Positions 5,869-63,599 of a DNA stretch of 64,000 nucleotides are shown here, in pieces. A program made the position numbers and the translations under genes. The notes under the pieces were generated by a model. The model saw nothing but the letters and a program-made list of their open reading frames with translations. It was not told where the DNA came from and did not search any database. Each line of letters starts with the position of its first letter. Position 1 is the first letter of the stretch. This DNA is from Dehalococcoidales bacterium (GTDB lineage: Bacteria > Chloroflexota > Dehalococcoidia > Dehalococcoidales > RBG-16-60-22), in assembly GCA_034409565.1 (NCBI GenBank), contig DAOUMS010000015.1, positions 23,227 through 87,226 of the forward strand. The letters are read 5' to 3'.

Positions 5869-6648
5869 TTAAGCGACTTTTCTGTCTTTAACGACCTTGC
5901 TCAGGGCTGACGACGCGGCACTCCGCAGCAGACCCTCGTCACTGCTTAAGGCGATAAACTGAAACCCCTGGGCAATGCGCTCGTTGACTGCTTCCGCACT
6001 GCCAACTTGAATGCCGCCCGGGACACCATGCCGCTTGCCCACCTCCAGGACCTTACTTACCGCCTCCACATGTCTGGGGTCAGTCTGGTCGAGACCTGGC
6101 TTCAACCCCAGCGATAGAGCGAGGTCGCTCGGCCCGATAAAGAAGGCGTCGATACCGTCCACGGAGATGATTTCGTCAGCGTGGTTCACGGCATCGATAT
6201 GTTCTATCTGCACGATGACGGCAATCTCTTCGTTGGCATGTTCAAAGTAGTCAACGCCGCCATAGAGGCGCGTTCTCGGTCCCCCGAAGCTCCGTATGCC
6301 GAGCGGCGGGTAACGGGTGGCCTGCACCGCCCGTATCGCTTCTTCGCGGCTGTTCACCATGGGGATGACCAGCCCGTAAGCACCGGCATCCAGAGCACGC
6401 TTGATTAGCGCCGGGTCATTCCAGGGCACCCTGACTATCGGTACCACATTGGTATAAAGGACAGCCTGTATGATGGACTGCGTGGTGCCGATGTCAATGG
6501 AGCCGTGCTCGGTGTCAATCACTACCCAGTCGTAGCCCATGTTGGCGATGATTTCGGCGGTGATGGGGCTGCCCAGCACCACCCAGGTGCCCACGGCTGC
6601 CTTACCTTCACGCCAGAGTTCCTTCACGCGGTTTTTCTTCAATGTCAT
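5869..6648 (-). CDS. HpcH/HpaI family class II pyruvate aldolase
   Basis: GYDWVVIDTEHGS, IVRVPWND, RALDAGAYG, QIEH, FFIGPSDL. Confidence 0.88.
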   Translation of the reverse strand: MTLKKNRVKELWREGKAAVGTWVVLGSPITAEIIANMGYDWVVIDTEHGSIDIGTTQSIIQAVLYTNVVPIVRVPWNDPALIKRALDAGAYGLVIPMVNSREEAIRAVQATRYPPLGIRSFGGPRTRLYGGVDYFEHANEEIAVIVQIEHIDAVNHADEIISVDGIDAFFIGPSDLALSLGLKPGLDQTDPRHVEAVSKVLEVGKRHGVPGGIQVGSAEAVNERIAQGFQFIALSSDEGLLRSAASSALSKVVKDRKVA

Positions 6649-6662
6649 CCCCCTTCCTTACT

Positions 6663-7712
6663 TTAGCCTTTAATCTGTTCCAGGAACCGCTTCAGCTTGG
6701 ACTGGAATTTCGGCTGGCCCCAGACCTCCCGGTTCACCACGCCGTCAGGCATTTCCCCTTTCATAAGCTGGCCAATCTGCTTGGCGATGATTTCCCACAC
6801 TCTGTTCAGGAACTGGTCGGTGAAACACATGGCATGGGCAGTAACGATGGCATTATCCAGCTTCAACAGCGGGTTATCCGGAGGGGTTGGCTCCTGGTCA
6901 AAGACATCCAGTGCCGCCCCCTCTATCCACCTCTCCCGCAGCGCCTTTATGAGCACCGCCTCGTCAATAATCGGCCCCCGGGCCGTATTGATTAAGAAAG
7001 CCGTCGGCTTCATCTTTTTCAATTCCTTCTCTCCGATGAGGTGACGGGTCTTCTCATTCAGCGGGCAGCTGATGCTGAGAAAGTCAGATTCAGAGAGCAC
7101 CGTGTCCATATCCACCAGTGTCGCGTCAACATCGCTCAAGTCTCCCGGTTTAAGGTAGGGGTCATAAGCGATGTGTCTCATGCCAAAGGGCTTGGCCAGC
7201 CGGAACATCTCATGGCCTATGTTCCCCACCCCCAGCGACCCCAGTGTCCGGCCAACCAGGCCATAGCCGTTGTGCTTGGCCACCTCACTCCACTGCCCCT
7301 CGCTGGTAAGCTGGTGCTTGAGGAAAAGACGCGTGCTCAGGGCTAAGAGAAAGGTGATGATGGCCACCGCTACCGGGCGGCGCACCGCATCCGGCGTGAT
7401 GCATAAAAGTACTCCGGCTTTTGTCAGCGCCGGAACATCAAGCCGGTCATAGCCAACGCCGTTGCGGTGCAGGGAAAGAAGCCGGTCATTGCCGACGAAA
7501 CTGCGCTCCGTCCACCTGGAGAAGGTGCGGGTAACCACGATATCATAATTCTCTAACTGACGCGGTGTGACTTCGGGCAGCTTCTCAGCGAAGGCCTCCC
7601 GCTCAATGCCCGGCATCTCCTCCAGAGACCTGAACCCCGGGCAATACAGAACAAAATTGCCGTCCTTATCATAGTAATCCTGGGTGAAGCCGACCCTGGC
7701 TTTACGTCCCAT
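6663..7712 (-). CDS. D-isomer-specific 2-hydroxyacid dehydrogenase family protein
   Basis: GVGYDRLD, GSLGVGNIG, LINTARGPIIDE, AALDVFDQEP, TAH. Start reassigned to ATG 7712, behind RBS AAGGAGG. Confidence 0.88.
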   Translation of the reverse strand: MGRKARVGFTQDYYDKDGNFVLYCPGFRSLEEMPGIEREAFAEKLPEVTPRQLENYDIVVTRTFSRWTERSFVGNDRLLSLHRNGVGYDRLDVPALTKAGVLLCITPDAVRRPVAVAIITFLLALSTRLFLKHQLTSEGQWSEVAKHNGYGLVGRTLGSLGVGNIGHEMFRLAKPFGMRHIAYDPYLKPGDLSDVDATLVDMDTVLSESDFLSISCPLNEKTRHLIGEKELKKMKPTAFLINTARGPIIDEAVLIKALRERWIEGAALDVFDQEPTPPDNPLLKLDNAIVTAHAMCFTDQFLNRVWEIIAKQIGQLMKGEMPDGVVNREVWGQPKFQSKLKRFLEQIKG

Positions 7713-8005
7713 GCCTGTTTCCTCCTTGTGATAAATTACGCTACGGTGAATTTCTGACCACAGTGAATTCGGCCAGGATGAAGGTGCACTAACCACATTT
7801 TTATCTTTAGCCATTACATTTGTCAAATATCCGTCTGTTATCAATCCCCCGAATTTTTGCCATCCGCCATGGGAATATTGTAATATTAATGGGAAAGATG
7901 ACCCATAATTTTGACACATCACAACCATCACCCTACCTTGGTGAGCCGGTCCTCACCATTTACCAAACAGGGCTAAAACAAGGAAAATAAGAAGGAGGTA
8001 TTTAC

Positions 8006-8428
8006 GTGTTCAAATCAGTCAATCTTCTCCGGCTGAATCACGGCCAGGAACTGCTAAGCGAGCTTACCAGATACTGTGAAAAGAAAGGCATAACCTCAGC
8101 CATAATCCTCGGTATCATTGGCTCTATAGAGAAGGTTAAATTCGGCACCGCCCCCAAAGACGGCACGTGGGGATGGGACTTTGACGAGTATGAGGGACAT
8201 CTGTCCATTCTCTCCGCTCAGGGTTCGCTTTCCGTACATGAGGGGGAGAAAATCTTCCACATCCACATGTGCGCCATTGACCCGCAGAAGCCGGGCCAGC
8301 TAATCGGTGGGCATGTCGAAGAAGCAATCGCCTGGGCGACGGTCGAGATTTACATCGGCGAGCTAAGCTATCAGCTCGAGCGTGACGTAGACCCCGAGTC
8401 TGGACTGACCGCGCTGCGGACCACCTAA
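8006..8428 (+). CDS. PPC (DUF296) domain protein
   Basis: GIIGSIEKV, ILSAQGSL, FHIHM, LIGGHV pattern. RBS AAGGAGG and GTG start. Confidence 0.8.
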   Translation: MFKSVNLLRLNHGQELLSELTRYCEKKGITSAIILGIIGSIEKVKFGTAPKDGTWGWDFDEYEGHLSILSAQGSLSVHEGEKIFHIHMCAIDPQKPGQLIGGHVEEAIAWATVEIYIGELSYQLERDVDPESGLTALRTT

Positions 8429-8710
8429 CATCTGGTTAGCGTGCGTCGACCTGAATAGCTGAAAGAGGTAGTGCCAGTCGCTAGCAAGCATTGAGTTAAT
8501 GCCACTATTCGAAAAACTTGATAAATCTAGTAGACTTCGATATTATGGCGTATGAAATGCGCACCTTCATCCTGAAAGCAATAGCCATGCTTATACGTTT
8601 CTCTGTTTCAGGGTAACTCGCCCAATTTGCATAAAAGGAGTGTTACCGGGTCAGATGATTGGCTAATAACCAGTATTATATAATTACTAAGATACAAGGA
8701 GGCAGGACCT

Positions 8711-9124
8711 ATGACGCATGAAGTCCATAAAGTAGTTAGAGAGTCTGGCGGACTGCGTATAGTCATCGCGGACTCAGCGACCTCGATTACCAAGGACAAC
8801 AAAAACGACATCGTCGTTGACGGCTCCCACTGTGGTGCCAATATCGCCCCCGACTATGTGCTCCCAAACGGTGCCCGTGGCATGATCGGCAATGATGCCG
8901 GTATCGGCCTGGAGAGTGCCGGGGTAGCCAGCCTTAAAATCCTGGAGGAGCGCGGCGTCCCGGCCGCAGCTGTAGCGGCCATGTCGGCCGAAATCGGCGT
9001 TGGTCAGTCCACGTACAATGAGGGTGTCATATCAACAGTCAATGAAGTAGCCAAGAAAATGGGCGTTACGGTTGGCATGTCAGCCAAAGAGGCGGCTGAT
9101 AAGATGCTGGAAGGCATCTCCTGA
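8711..9124 (+). CDS. Conserved hypothetical protein, paralog 1 of a tandem pair
   Basis: RBS AAGGAGG. Shares DGSHCG, GNDAG, PAAAV, MSAxIG and VNExAKK-GV-GMS with the next gene. Confidence 0.75.
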   Translation: MTHEVHKVVRESGGLRIVIADSATSITKDNKNDIVVDGSHCGANIAPDYVLPNGARGMIGNDAGIGLESAGVASLKILEERGVPAAAVAAMSAEIGVGQSTYNEGVISTVNEVAKKMGVTVGMSAKEAADKMLEGIS

Positions 9125-59480: not shown

Positions 59481-60102
59481 ATTGCCCCCGGTATTCCCCG
59501 GGCAACAGCCCGGCAATCTGCCCCATTATGGAGTGGGTGAACTCCGCAAGCTGTTTTCTGGTCACCTTGCCATTTACTGACGGCAGGGTAAATGGGCGCC
59601 CGATATTCACCGTGATTTCCGGACGGCGTAACCACCAGTTAAAGCCCGTTATTTTTTCGGTGCCACAAATTCCCACCGGCAGGATGGGAACACCGTTACG
59701 CACCGCAATGAGTGCCGGCCCGGAAAAAGCATTGGCCAGTTGCGCTTCCAGGCTGCGCCGGCCCTCCGGAAAGGCGATTAGCGCACCTCCCCGGCCAAAC
59801 AATTTTTCGGCAAAGCGCAGGGCGTCCCGGTTCATGCCCCCGCGCCGTATGGGAAAGGCGCCACATCTATGGAAGATATAACGCGGTATCCGACCGCGGA
59901 ATAGCTCCTCCTTGGCCAGAAACATCGCTTCCCGTTTGATGCCGATACCCACCAGCGGCGGGTCCGCCATGCTGAGATGGTTCGATACCACCAGCAGCGG
60001 CCCTTCAACCGGAACATGCTCTCTGCCGAACACCCTGAACCTGGTTAAGAGAAACGCAAGCACCTGCGTCAAAGTACGGCCAACATAGTAAATCCAGTGC
60101 AT
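59461..60102 (-). CDS. plsC: 1-acyl-sn-glycerol-3-phosphate acyltransferase
   Basis: NHLSMAD, FLAKEEL, FPIRR, FPEGRRS. Confidence 0.9.
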   Translation of the reverse strand: MHWIYYVGRTLTQVLAFLLTRFRVFGREHVPVEGPLLVVSNHLSMADPPLVGIGIKREAMFLAKEELFRGRIPRYIFHRCGAFPIRRGGMNRDALRFAEKLFGRGGALIAFPEGRRSLEAQLANAFSGPALIAVRNGVPILPVGICGTEKITGFNWWLRRPEITVNIGRPFTLPSVNGKVTRKQLAEFTHSIMGQIAGLLPGEYRGQYGGEKS

Positions 60103-60135
60103 TTCTTCCTACAGGAAGATATGGTATTTCTCTCA

Positions 60136-60164
60136 ATTATAGCGGTGGGGCGAGTCAAAGGCAA
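60136..60164 (-). promoter_or_regulatory. Putative promoter of plsC-ispH
   Basis: TTGCCT-17 nt-TATAAT on the minus strand. Confidence 0.5.
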
Positions 60165-60178
60165 TTTAGGTTGATGCA

Positions 60179-60922
60179 CTAAGGAATAGGGAATACGTTA
60201 CCATTACTGTGGAAATCCCTCAGGACTTTCCCATAAACTCCGTTTACAAGGTCGTTTAACTTTTTAACTATGCTATTACAATAGTTTATTGCAACCCGAC
60301 GCCGTGTAAATGTGAAGGGCCTAGTTTGAGGATTGTCAGGCAATTTAATATCCTCTGTCAATTTATACTTGTTTTCAACCTGGTCATAGCTAAATTTTAT
60401 ATTATCATACCTAATTAAACTTTCATGTGTTGTGCAATGCCTAAAGGGTTCGAATTCGATAAACCATCGCTGGCGAATTTGCATATCTAGAAATCGGCTA
60501 GTTTCCGACGCGTTATGACTAACTGATAACATTTGATTAGCGGTGGATATGTATATATTACGAGGCACTCGGGGAACTGTAAATAAAGTATACAATTCGT
60601 GTCCAAGCGTATCCATCACACTCATAGCATTCATAAAAAAACCATCTAGAAAAAGATTCATATACAGACAATATCCATGTGTATCAAGCAGAGGTTCTTG
60701 TGCTGTTGTGACTGCAGATTGTGTAGATTGTGTGGCCGTAGAGGAAGGGAATACCTTAAATTGATTTATATCAAGGTCTTGAATTGACTTACGATAATAC
60801 TCTACTGACCACAGCTTTTGACTCACAGAGCTATGAAAAAGATTGAAATCAAACAATAAGCGACTATCAGTTACTGCCCTATTATAGAATTCACGTATTT
60901 GTTGATGATCTGGTTGTGACAT
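60179..60922 (-). CDS. Putative HEPN-superfamily RNase (Cthe_2314-like)
   Basis: Helical protein with FLDGFFMNAMSVMDTLGHEL and the Rx4H motif RHCTTH (60425-60442). AT-rich. ATG 60922 preferred to TTG 60934. Confidence 0.65.
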   Translation of the reverse strand: MSQPDHQQIREFYNRAVTDSRLLFDFNLFHSSVSQKLWSVEYYRKSIQDLDINQFKVFPSSTATQSTQSAVTTAQEPLLDTHGYCLYMNLFLDGFFMNAMSVMDTLGHELYTLFTVPRVPRNIYISTANQMLSVSHNASETSRFLDMQIRQRWFIEFEPFRHCTTHESLIRYDNIKFSYDQVENKYKLTEDIKLPDNPQTRPFTFTRRRVAINYCNSIVKKLNDLVNGVYGKVLRDFHSNGNVFPIP

Positions 60923-60956
60923 ATATTTACACAACCTTATAACATACTAATCGAAG

Positions 60957-61697
60957 TCATTCCCCATGATATTCTTTTCTCTGTATCCAGTTAGGTTTTT
61001 CGGAAGGAGCAAACAACAGGACATCGATGGGACCGCCAACATTCTTTGGTCGTGCCTGAAAACGCATCGTATCTATAGTAGTTCGAATAGCAAACACCGC
61101 AAAATCTATAGCATCTTGTAGAGTCATAGCATCCCATATTATTGGAGCCGGGGCACGAATGACTTTTTCCTGTCCTTTCTCGTCTGCTATTACCACGGGA
61201 TTTATTATGGAAGTAAGTATGTCAGTCTGCCCGGACCAGCTGGCACCATACGCAACTGTCTTGTTCGGTCTTACATTTCGTCTTTCAACTTTATTATTTC
61301 CTACATGGCAGCGAAAAACGTAAGGAATGCTGAGTTTTTGTTCTTTTTTATATCCCGCAACGTGGAACCCGGCATCTGCTTTAGGTGCAAAACTACGAAA
61401 ATAGTCTATTAATTTCTGAGGGATTGTTGTAACATCGTCTGCTGCTACTAATGTTTCTTCAATGAAACCTCTTAAGTATCGGGCCATAGGCACGCCGTTA
61501 ATCATATCCTGACCATAGTTTGATATACCGACCTGTTGCTCCTCTAGTAAAAAGGTCTTAGTAACAGCATCTGAATTCACTGTCTCGACCTTCACATCTC
61601 TTCCGTCTGGAGCTTTTCCTTCAACGGTCACAGATTGCCTGCTATCAGAAGCCATAACAATACCTTCTGGAACGTAAACAACAATAATTAATGACAT
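60957..61697 (-). CDS. Ntn-hydrolase, proteasome beta-like, with N-terminal Ser
   Basis: (M)SLIIVVYVPEGIVMASDSR...K, FHVAGY, DAIDFAVFAI...VGGPIDV. RBS GGAGG. Confidence 0.7.
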   Translation of the reverse strand: MSLIIVVYVPEGIVMASDSRQSVTVEGKAPDGRDVKVETVNSDAVTKTFLLEEQQVGISNYGQDMINGVPMARYLRGFIEETLVAADDVTTIPQKLIDYFRSFAPKADAGFHVAGYKKEQKLSIPYVFRCHVGNNKVERRNVRPNKTVAYGASWSGQTDILTSIINPVVIADEKGQEKVIRAPAPIIWDAMTLQDAIDFAVFAIRTTIDTMRFQARPKNVGGPIDVLLFAPSEKPNWIQRKEYHGE

Positions 61698-61744
61698 TCC
61701 GAACCTCCAATACTCTTACATGGCTGTAATTAAAAAGCAACAGA

Positions 61745-61772
61745 ATTATAATCCTAATATAGAAAATGTCAA
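61745..61772 (-). promoter_or_regulatory. Consensus sigma70 promoter of the Ntn-HEPN cassette
   Basis: TTGACA-16 nt-TATAAT on the minus strand. Confidence 0.75.
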
Positions 61773-61823
61773 TACCTAGATTAACTAGCTACATTAAAAA
61801 ATTGACGAAGTGTTACTTTTGAA

Positions 61824-63599
61824 CTACAGAATCAAGTTCAGCAGGCCGCCCACGGAAAGGGAAACTATAACCATGACGGCGGCGGCCTTGAGCATCCCGG
61901 TGGTGCCCAGCTCCCGCAGCAGGACGACAAAGGTGGCGATGCAGGGGAAGAACATGGCCAGCACCACGCTGCCCACGACCAGCTGTCCTGAGGTTAGCGC
62001 CAGAGGCGCCAGCATACCCACGGCCACGTCCTTGCGCAGGAAGCCGATGGCCAGCGCCACCACCGCTTCCTTGGGCAACCCCAGCAGGCCGGTTACCACC
62101 GGCGCCGTGAAATCGGCGATGGCATTGAAGACACCCAGGGCATACAGTATGTTCATCACCAGAACCGCGCCCAGAATAATCGGGATGGCTTCACGCAGGA
62201 AACCATGAACCCTGAGCCACAGCTTCTGCAACACGGTACGCCACGGCGGTATACGATAGGGTGGAATCTCGATTAATAGCTCGGGGCTGAAGCCCTTTAT
62301 CAGGCGATTGAGAATAAAGCCGAGTATGACCCAGACCAAGAACAGGGTCCCGTAGACGATGGCGACATACTGAATCCCGCGCTGTCCCACCAGGCCAAAG
62401 ACCATGGCCTGCAGCGCCGCGCAGGGCACGGCAATGGAAATAAGCGTGGCCGCGATGAACCTCTCCCGTTTGCTTTCCAGTATCCTGGTCGCCAGAATTG
62501 CCGGCACGTTGCAGCCAAGCCCCAGCAAGGTGGGGATAATGGCGTAACCGTGAAGGCCCAGGCGGTGCATGATGGTATCCATGAGAACGGCCAGACGCGG
62601 CAGATAGCCGATGTCCTCCAGCAGCCCGAGCAAGAGGTAGAAAGAGACGATGTATGGCAGCACCATGGCAAAAGGCACATAGAGCCCGGTGGTCAGTAAA
62701 CCGAACGACTCGACGTAATTGACCTCACCGGCCGCGATATTGCCGAGCAGTGCTGCATGGAAGATGCCGGAGCCGCCCATCAGGTTGCTCAGCCACAATA
62801 TCACCGGCGTCCAGAGGTGCTCGAACAGGGGGTCCAGGACGTAGGTTATCAGGCTTTCCCCGACGAAGCGGATACCAAAGAATGTGCCGGCAAGGACGAC
62901 CGCCGCGATGACTATGCCGGTTATTGGTCGGACGCTGGCATCTTCCAGGCGCTCCAGCCAGGTATGATGACGGTGGGTCACCTGCTGCACCTGTTCCACA
63001 ATGCTGCCAATGGCCGCCCACCGCTCATTGTGGCTGGCCTGGGGCAGTCTAAGCGCTCTGGCGGCGGGAAGGCTTTCCACCAGCTCTTTTATGCCCTGCC
63101 CGGCCACCGCCACCGTGGGAATAACGGGAACGCCGAGCAAATCCTCAAGCTTCTTTAAATCAATGTGGATGCCGCGGTGACCGACGTCGTCCCACATGTT
63201 CAGGGCTATGACCATCGGGATGCCCTTTTCCAGCAACTGGAGCGTCAGGTTTAGGTTTCTCTCCAGATTGGTGGCATCAACCACATTGATGACCACATCG
63301 CCGGTGGCAAGCATTTTCAGGGCGATTTCCTCTGCCTCCGAGGACGGCTCCAGCCCGTAAGTGCCGGGCACATCAACCACCTCCGCCACCTCCTCCCCAA
63401 TTTTCGTCAGTCCCTGCGTATAACCAACCGTAGTTCCCGGATAGTTGGAGGCGATAACCCGCACGCCTGTCAGTCGTGAAAAAACGACGCTCTTGCCGAC
63501 ATTGGGGTTGCCCATGAGGAGAATTTTCCTCAGGCCGCTTTTTTTACCTCTACCCTTTTTAACGCGGGGGATCGCCCCGTGACACGCCATTCCCCTCAC
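61824..63599 (-). CDS. feoB: Ferrous iron transporter B
   Basis: GNPNVGKS, NYPGTTV, DVPG, NLERNL, NMWD, then a membrane domain with GYLPRLA, GLGCNVPA and FFPC. Confidence 0.93.
   Translation of the reverse strand: MRGMACHGAIPRVKKGRGKKSGLRKILLMGNPNVGKSVVFSRLTGVRVIASNYPGTTVGYTQGLTKIGEEVAEVVDVPGTYGLEPSSEAEEIALKMLATGDVVINVVDATNLERNLNLTLQLLEKGIPMVIALNMWDDVGHRGIHIDLKKLEDLLGVPVIPTVAVAGQGIKELVESLPAARALRLPQASHNERWAAIGSIVEQVQQVTHRHHTWLERLEDASVRPITGIVIAAVVLAGTFFGIRFVGESLITYVLDPLFEHLWTPVILWLSNLMGGSGIFHAALLGNIAAGEVNYVESFGLLTTGLYVPFAMVLPYIVSFYLLLGLLEDIGYLPRLAVLMDTIMHRLGLHGYAIIPTLLGLGCNVPAILATRILESKRERFIAATLISIAVPCAALQAMVFGLVGQRGIQYVAIVYGTLFLVWVILGFILNRLIKGFSPELLIEIPPYRIPPWRTVLQKLWLRVHGFLREAIPIILGAVLVMNILYALGVFNAIADFTAPVVTGLLGLPKEAVVALAIGFLRKDVAVGMLAPLALTSGQLVVGSVVLAMFFPCIATFVVLLRELGTTGMLKAAAVMVIVSLSVGGLLNLIL

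Follow-up and report, generated by a model that had tools for sequence, protein, structure and literature searches.

A mobile two-gene cassette pairing a proteasome-beta-like hydrolase with a HEPN-like protein that carries a predicted RNase motif

The locus described here lies in a 64,000-nucleotide stretch of a Dehalococcoidales contig (GenBank DAOUMS010000015.1, positions 23,227 to 87,226 of the forward strand), referred to throughout as the window. Direct reading of its minus strand between positions 60163 and 61814 reveals two co-oriented open reading frames (ORFs) separated by 34 nt. The first, gene A (60957..61697, minus strand), encodes a 246-aa proteasome-beta-like hydrolase with a predicted N-terminal serine nucleophile, and the second, gene B (60179..60922, minus strand), encodes a Cthe_2314-like HEPN protein of 247 aa when read from its ATG, with an alternative TTG start at 60934. 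The 34-nt spacer between them (60923..60956, minus strand) contains an AAGG ribosome-binding site. Upstream of gene A, a sigma-70-type promoter, TTGACA-16-TATAAT (61745..61772, minus strand), agrees with the consensus at 12 of 12 positions and is the sole such match within 59900-62100, and a 13-nt palindrome (61776..61788, minus strand) abuts its -35 element. Promoter, gene A, spacer, gene B and a 16-nt 3' tail together form a cassette (60163..61814, minus strand) delimited by DNA identity to the loci L158-L161. The guanine-plus-cytosine (GC) content of the A+B pair is 39.2%, against 57.4% and 56.3% in the flanking 2-3 kb. Precomputed Pfam annotation of the identical locus L156/L157 places Fur-FeoA-FeoB upstream of the cassette and a PlsC-like acyltransferase, LytB/IspH and an AsnC-type regulator downstream. 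The original prediction for this DNA had described two co-oriented low-GC genes 34 nt apart, wedged between feoB and plsC-ispH and driven by their own promoter, with a beta-subunit-like N-terminus and a VGGPIDV segment in the first gene and RHCTTH in the second; each of these elements is present as described.

The gene A protein begins MSLIIVVYVPEGIVMASDSR, and its translation includes KNVGGPIDVLL. Taken alone, the window A protein has no match in Pfam, NCBIfam, PADLOC or the sequences of the Protein Data Bank (PDB), and nothing relevant emerged from PDB sequence searches in which the queries were the single A and B proteins or the narrow alignments A1 and A2. Detection of the proteasome by sequence profile was achieved only with the diverse superfamily alignment A6, comprising 117 sequences 28-54% identical to the window A protein. 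When aligned by hhalign to the proteasome beta subunit of Thermoplasma acidophilum, the query sequence of which was confirmed beforehand to be identical to PDB 3c91_H, A6 gave a probability of 93.9% and an E-value of 1.6e-7 over 172 columns, pairing D18 of A with E17 and K47 with K33 of the T. acidophilum protein. An hmmsearch of PDB sequences with the same alignment yielded 50 matches, all of them proteasome beta or alpha chains, connectase or Anbu (best E 1.4e-4), and among divergent relatives of A the Pfam Proteasome model PF00227 falls just under its threshold (20.9 vs 22.4 bits). Because the profile alignments to beta chains run in register, Ser2 of A can be equated with Thr1 of the proteasome; its codon lies at 61692-61694, that of Asp18 at 61644-61646 and that of Lys47 at 61557-61559 (all minus strand). 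The AlphaFold (AF2) model of A is poor (predicted local distance difference test score, pLDDT, 63.9), having been built from a shallow alignment with members ~70% identical to the window protein. A Foldseek search of the PDB with this model returned 94 matches at E <= 1e-3, those listed being all 20S proteasome or Anbu structures (best 3.7e-6), with template modelling (TM) scores that are low because of the model pLDDT of 64. Thus, hhalign, hmmsearch and Foldseek together uphold the proteasome-beta-like fold that had been proposed for this gene.

Conservation within the family points in the same direction. In all of 190 distinct homologs the residue at position 2, directly following Met1, is either Ser (168 sequences) or Thr (22 sequences), and D18, R20, K47, G57, G62, G221 and G222 are invariant. 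The same active-site residues, the catalytic triad included, are invariant in the B-linked copies of A. The sequence hallmarks of a proteasome subunit are accordingly found in A, namely a Ser/Thr nucleophile at the mature N-terminus and equivalents of Asp/Glu17, Lys33 and Gly47, and since removal of Met1 would bare the serine nucleophile directly, no propeptide would be needed. As judged from its sequence, gene A encodes a proteasome-beta-like N-terminal nucleophile (Ntn) hydrolase whose active site is predicted to be intact. In the model, two extra strands are located between the third and fourth helices, between 156-165 and 193-214. The family is large, with at least 2180 clusters at 90% identity and 1358 clusters at 50% identity (E <= 1e-3, exhaustive HMMER search), and it is strongly conserved (~70% identity across phyla), mostly solitary, and spread over anaerobic bacteria and archaea.

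Two unusual forms of gene A were seen along the way. P0384, a 535-aa protein from the representative library, joins an N-terminal domain of ~300 aa to an A-like domain in its interior (…PV followed by SLIISVYVPTGIVVSGDSR…). This N-terminal domain contains an RNKVSH motif and gives a weak match to the PADLOC CARF_HEPN model (E 0.016); as a relative of B the N-terminal 300 aa were rejected (hhalign probability 0.7%), and they would at best represent a different HEPN family. P0384 may be an independent HEPN-Ntn fusion that would require autoprocessing, or an artefact of gene calling. At L078 (8001-8743), gene A is frameshifted into two ORFs and the downstream gene B is intact; a sequencing indel is as likely an origin as a true pseudogene, the metagenome-assembled genome (MAG) being apparently a long-read assembly.

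Gene B belongs to a much smaller family, for which even a profile query retrieves no more than 199 clusters (E <= 0.01). Its AlphaFold (AF2) model is confident (pLDDT 91.7; predicted TM score 0.87) and contains three long helices (20-49, 81-113 and 211-239), a group of short inserted ones (125-149) and a helix at 152-161 that terminates in R161 and is followed by H-C-T-T-H166 and then by a beta-hairpin at 177-188. A long, disordered, length-variable loop separates helices 1 and 2 (~56-80). Across 97 B sequences R161 and H166 are invariant, as are D93 and D104 in the second long helix, and the C-terminus is conserved as well, with the consensus NGNxLPIP and P245 at least 90% conserved. The motif itself, R161-H-C-T-T-H166 (codons 60425..60442, minus strand), lies in the window protein within FRHCTTHES, residues 160-168, and reads RHCTTHES in 55 and RNCTTHES in 4 of 63 distinct locus-derived B proteins. 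In the published definition (Anantharaman et al. 2013, PMC3710099), a HEPN domain is an up-down bundle of four helices, often with insertions separating helices 2 and 3; helix 2 bears a conserved acidic residue, and helix 3 ends in an Rx4-6H motif whose Arg is followed by N, D or H. To judge from the model, gene B fits all four of these features. Profile similarity to the Pfam model HEPN_Cthe2314 is consistent with this assignment, 63 of 97 family members matching at E <= 0.1 with a best value of 3.4e-5, all of them below threshold. Prokaryotic HEPN proteins that retain Rx4-6H are predicted RNases, many of them belonging to toxin-antitoxin, abortive-infection or defence systems (PMC3710099), and the B motif would correspond to an intact, metal-independent RNase motif of predicted activity. 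The HEPN fold proposed earlier for this gene therefore stands as regards the invariant Rx4H and the four defining features; it is not backed by an above-threshold profile score or by a significant structural match, as detailed below.

The two genes are linked far beyond the window. In a sample of 65 metagenomic loci collected from the B side, A lies directly upstream of B on the same strand in 58, with gaps of -59 to +28 nt, and since five of the 65 loci lack upstream sequence, this amounts to 58 of 60 informative loci. The two loci without A are L122, discussed below, and L155, in which an isolated 64-residue fragment of B is found (867-1058). The gap between the genes is typically 3-35 nt across loci, with a mode of 23, and the arrangement recurs in more than 60 independent contigs, in many genomic contexts and in several phyla. 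Viewed from the A side, B is present at 7 of 80 genome loci (~9%; L015, L022, L028, L044, L049, L050 and L078), which agrees with the B:A family-size ratio of ~1:10. The linkage is thus real but one-sided: B almost never occurs without A, and A is mostly solitary. Accordingly, the co-occurrence of the two genes anticipated in the original prediction holds for B, down to their joint occurrence in a cassette, and does not hold for the ~90% of A genes that stand alone. At one further locus, L139 (497-1425), a 5'-truncated A retaining residues 184-246 only precedes B.

The history of the pair is reflected in the A family tree. In a neighbour-joining tree, B-carrying copies of A form several blocks within a high-identity crown, interspersed with solo copies, and deep A clades such as that of Methanoregula lack B. 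Pairwise identities of A and B are correlated (r = 0.81), with means of 69% for A and 47% for B. In one Dehalococcoidales MAG, a solo A (L017) is found in addition to an A+B cassette (L028), their A proteins being 72% identical, subject to the usual caveat of MAG binning. No pseudogene remnants of B were found downstream of truly solo A genes.

Comparison with its closest relatives shows that the 1.65-kb self-promoted two-gene operon moves between genomes as a unit. In L158-L161, the A and B proteins are 92% and 87% identical to the window copies, and the cassette is flanked not by feoB and plsC but by an alpha/beta-hydrolase gene on one side and a gene for a coiled-coil protein on the other. 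DNA identity is 88.6% over 1654 aligned nt (window 60163..61814), and the shared span extends from 117 nt upstream of the A ATG, the promoter included, to 16 nt beyond the B stop codon. Homology stops abruptly at both ends, the upstream edge falling 9 nt beyond the stop codon of feoB. Neither end of the cassette is marked by direct or inverted terminal repeats, a target-site duplication or an attC-like element. Between the window and L158 copies the synonymous divergence (dS) is ~0.41-0.46, and the ratios of nonsynonymous to synonymous divergence (dN/dS) of 0.087 for A and 0.138 for B indicate that both genes are kept by purifying selection. The composition of the pair is consistently foreign, its GC content being lower than that of the flanks in 14 of 14 A+B loci that have 1.5 kb or more of sequence on either side (mean 6.9 points; 18 points at the window cassette), and solo A differs from its flanks by 2.8 points only. 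No tblastn match was obtained in cultured phages for A or B, or in plasmids for A, and IMG/VR holds three relatives of A, two of them distant, and none of B.

That A and B are merely chance neighbours without functional relation is scarcely conceivable given these data. The same order, strand and short spacer are kept in nearly every informative B locus, in many contexts and several phyla, the two proteins co-evolve, and they are transferred jointly as a cassette; linkage, transfer and identity correlation together effectively refute fortuitous adjacency.

The regulatory region travels with the genes. In the L158 copy of the cassette the -10 hexamer is identical and the spacer of the promoter differs by one base. 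The palindrome reads CTAGTTAATCTAG in the window and CTGGATAATCCAG in L158 (about 445-457), a G..C to A..T change having occurred on both arms with the symmetry kept. Lying beside the -35 element, it could be a candidate operator, a weak observation drawn from two sequences; no DNA-binding domain is evident in the A or B protein. No Rfam RNA was found in or around the cassette. At the other end, a promoter-like site, TTGCCT-17-TATAAT (window 60136-60164, minus strand), spans the boundary at the 3' end of the cassette, a short distance upstream of plsC, so that insertion of the cassette may have left or created a plsC promoter, and a short hairpin (60104-60119) overlaps the plsC ribosome-binding region.

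We interpret the cassette, with a probability of roughly 0.4, as a module of toxin-antitoxin-like or abortive-infection-like character, with the RNase B under the control of the hydrolase A. In such a module B would be the RNase effector, and A, translated first from the shared mRNA, would control it post-translationally, most simply by cleaving or degrading it, so that B would be active only upon inhibition, saturation or loss of A. The disordered loop (~56-80) and the conserved C-terminal tail of B would be candidate handles for such an action. The toxicity of B, the action of A on it and the direction of control are our inferences. The layout is that expected of a toxin-antitoxin operon, a compact bicistron with its own promoter in which A comes first and B rarely occurs without it, A-first order and a short spacer being the usual antitoxin-toxin arrangement. 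More broadly, the architecture does match that of small chromosomal toxin-antitoxin-like modules, with a self-promoted bicistron, low GC content, scattered insertion sites and a fast-evolving HEPN protein. B rarely lacks A, and A often lacks B; such an imbalance would be expected of a B protein that is harmful, or of no use, by itself. It is predicted by control of B through A and is equally compatible with A activating B. In its more specific form, the proposal would have a proteasome-family Ntn hydrolase dedicated to proteolytic control of a HEPN RNase, either as a degrading antitoxin or as a licensing protease, which we regard as possible and, on present evidence, somewhat unlikely.

A number of observations weigh against this interpretation, and the first of them concern the identity of B. 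The window B protein scores against HEPN_Cthe2314 with an E-value of 0.0097 and 16.4 bits, short of the gathering score of 27.1, and a Foldseek search of the PDB with the B model returned nothing below E 0.1, the HEPN toxins 7bxo_G and 7ae6_A appearing at E 1.0-1.7. The top PDB matches in this search were instead the proteasome activators PA26/PA28 (E 0.11-0.3, probability ~0.4), which raises the alternative that B is an 11S-like helical cap sitting on a ring of A subunits, with an Rx4H motif that is structural rather than catalytic; the conserved C-terminus, NGNxLPIP, is reminiscent of docking tails. However, the PA26/PA28 matches are non-significant, with TM scores of 0.27-0.34 between what are in both cases simple helical bundles, and the HEPN toxins in the same list have better target-normalised TM scores (0.49 for 7bxo_G and 0.42 for 7ae6_A). 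In addition, nearly two-thirds of B family members (63/97) match the HEPN Pfam model, and the invariant Arg and His together with a polar residue after the Arg are hard to explain without catalysis. We consequently consider a cap function very improbable, reject it as the main explanation, and take the resemblance as generic similarity among helical bundles.

A second group of such observations concerns the independence of A and the surroundings of the pair. About 90% of the A family occurs without B, and at L122 (648-1400) an intact, solitary B with RHCTTH lies between a HAD hydrolase gene and mfd. As a conserved enzyme of 246 aa that mostly occurs without B, A is unlike a classical antitoxin. 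In Dehalococcoidia, many solo A genes occupy a conserved slot between dapF and an aminotransferase gene, dapF lying upstream of A in 21 loci with a usual gap of ~22 nt and the aminotransferase downstream in 18. The conservation of A, its solitary majority and the dapF slot suggest an independent housekeeping role. Among 150 neighbouring ORFs scanned at 42 non-redundant A+B loci, many of them on short contigs, the commonest Pfam neighbours are DAP epimerase (DapF), PNPOx, an HflX-type GTPase, MiaA, aminotransferase and TIM, and Type I restriction-modification or methyltransferase genes, integrases and transposases occur at only a few loci. Because the neighbours are mostly housekeeping genes, enrichment in defence islands, which the original prediction had led one to expect, is not supported in this sample, which includes many short contigs and has no formal background comparison. 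A search of PADLOC-DB v2 gave no match for A or B at E <= 1; a negative PADLOC result had been anticipated for an undescribed system, and NCBIfam likewise has no match for either window protein.

These observations are accommodated most readily by our main rival explanation, in which A is a self-sufficient cellular peptidase, possibly oligomeric, and B an optional regulator, adaptor or substrate recruiter, without any toxin logic; RNA cleavage could, for example, be coupled to peptide degradation in quality control. This would suit a protein that is mostly solitary, ~70% identical across phyla and placed among housekeeping genes such as dapF and the aminotransferase, and the dapF slot itself holds dapF-A-B-aminotransferase in L007, L015, L022 and L078. 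It would also suit the mostly housekeeping neighbourhoods of A+B and the lack of PADLOC matches. The accessory role is harder to reconcile with the patchy distribution of B and its faster evolution relative to A, with a pair that is compositionally foreign and shifts as a cassette between unrelated sites, and with the retention in at least one MAG of a solo A beside an A+B cassette. Moreover, most prokaryotic HEPN proteins that stand alone and retain an intact motif are RNases of conflict systems (PMC3710099). We regard an accessory role for B as a credible non-conflict alternative, though an unlikely one.

The slot in which A occurs with and without B, and a few other neighbourhoods, deserve separate description. 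The class I/II aminotransferase gene and A are part of a PGK-PGM-TIM-miaA-PNPOx-dapF ... hflX string. Copies of this string have or lack B at one and the same position, and examples without B include L003, L004, L014, L016, L026 and others, with A at about 6001-6741 or 8001-8741. Other neighbours of solo A are recO, groEL, rmuC and radical-SAM genes. In a Methanocellales MAG (JAQUAS010000007.1; L001, 1-12738), a solo A lies in an apparent integrated element containing plasmid-like genes, with helix-turn-helix regulators, an Eco57I-type restriction-modification fusion with a specificity subunit and an OLD-family nuclease on one side, and phage Rep-O-like, Hjc-like and TraG-like genes on the other. 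Of the longer loci, L005 (1-12741) is the sole A+B locus clearly flanked by defence or mobile-element genes: an entire Type I restriction-modification system (HsdR/S/M) lies on one side of the pair and an IS21 element (IstA/IstB) on the other. Small co-oriented ORFs directly following or overlapping solo A were also seen in bacteria of the candidate phyla radiation and in one gammaproteobacterium (L037 8770-9462, L062 8767-9468 and L042 8752-8991 in Patescibacteria/Saccharibacteria; L033 8732-9307; L053 8844-9335), and one set of such ORFs, of ~230 aa, is shared in conserved form by two distinct clades of A. These ORFs may encode alternative partners for A. Identification of the ORFs in L037/L062/L042 (~230 aa) and in L033/L053 as PIN-like nuclease partners was rejected, the likeness being by eye only, with no Pfam, PADLOC or PDB profile support.

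The polarity of the proposed module might also be the reverse, with A as a protease effector directed against cellular or phage proteins and B as the sensor or regulator gating it, for example by binding RNA or being activated by it. Protease effectors gated by nucleic-acid-sensing partners are known from other defence systems, and the catalytic triad of A is invariant in all B-linked copies. However, A is mostly solitary and is tolerated without B, which makes an ungated toxin unlikely, and B has kept a full catalytic RNase motif rather than just a binding surface. We therefore judge reverse polarity improbable, and retain control of the RNase B by the hydrolase A as the preferred interpretation.

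Both proteins have relatives in the literature. Dozens of prokaryotic proteasome-homolog families have been catalogued beside Anbu, BPH, HslV and connectase, the PMI-type homologs among them (Fuchs, Alva & Lupas 2021, PMC8665760), of which PMI-2 to PMI-6 have an insertion separating helix H3 from helix H4; for none of the novel families did that study find a genomic context or a pattern of co-occurrence. A shares with the PMI-type homologs the proteasome-beta fold, the Thr1/Ser1-Asp17-Lys33-Gly47 pattern, the absence of a propeptide, the H3/H4 insertion (seen as the extra strands in the A model) and a distribution over bacteria and Euryarchaeota shaped by horizontal transfer. It has no Pfam match on its own, and it differs in that a subset of the family has an obligately linked HEPN partner. 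By these published features the A family resembles the PMI-type homologs and is probably not undescribed; the H3/H4 insertion and taxonomic spread would be consistent with PMI-4 or another named PMI subfamily. For the Cthe_2314 HEPN family (Pfam PF18730), a 2013 survey listed genomic associations as 'None detected' (PMC3710099). B resembles this family in its four-helix architecture, in an Rx4H motif whose Arg is followed by a polar residue, and in a weak but consistent profile similarity, and it departs from it in scoring below the gathering threshold, in the beta-hairpin after the motif, in the long disordered loop between helices 1 and 2, and, unlike the family as surveyed, in being tied to a proteasome homolog.

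No account of the pairing turned up in full-text literature searches for HEPN together with proteasome homologs or Ntn hydrolases. Within the searchable literature the pairing thus appears to be undescribed; the individual folds are known, and what is new is the pairing, its strict directionality and its mobility. The original prediction of an undescribed system consequently holds in that no named system matches the pairing, and is qualified in that the A family has probably been catalogued already. The pair represents the first conserved partner for an A-type proteasome-like family and a genomic association for a Cthe_2314-like HEPN protein. If the RNase is under proteolytic control, the cassette would embody a new chemistry of neutralisation or activation and a new mechanistic type of toxin-antitoxin or abortive-infection system, would give an 'orphan' family of proteasome homologs its first assigned partner and function, and would make accessible to experiment a family of orphan proteases common among uncultured anaerobes (such as Dehalococcoidia, Patescibacteria and methanogens). 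If B is instead a physiological adaptor, the pair would connect a prokaryotic proteasome-like peptidase with RNA cleavage, and this link would likewise be new. As a conserved, co-evolving and jointly mobile pair, the cassette is a clonable and testable unit of 1.65 kb.

Proteases genetically coupled to an effector are familiar from defence systems such as CalpL/CalpT/CalpS, Craspase and the gasdermin-protease pairs. The likeness of the cassette to these protease-gated systems is conceptual only, lying in the coupling of a protease to an effector; the cassette contains no CRISPR, cyclic-nucleotide or sensor component and is matched by no PADLOC model, and the proteases belong to different clans, A being of the Ntn/proteasome type vs Lon, caspase or trypsin. 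A closer parallel is offered by the type VII toxin-antitoxin system HepT/MntA, in which a HEPN toxin is neutralised by an enzymatic antitoxin through AMPylation. Both are two-gene operons with a downstream HEPN RNase (a predicted one in the case of B) and an upstream partner that is an enzyme and not a small labile binder, and both form small, low-GC, mobile loci scattered among housekeeping genes. They differ in that most members of the A family stand alone and show the conservation of a housekeeping gene, and since A is a proteasome-family hydrolase and not a nucleotidyltransferase, any neutralisation of B by A would be proteolytic.

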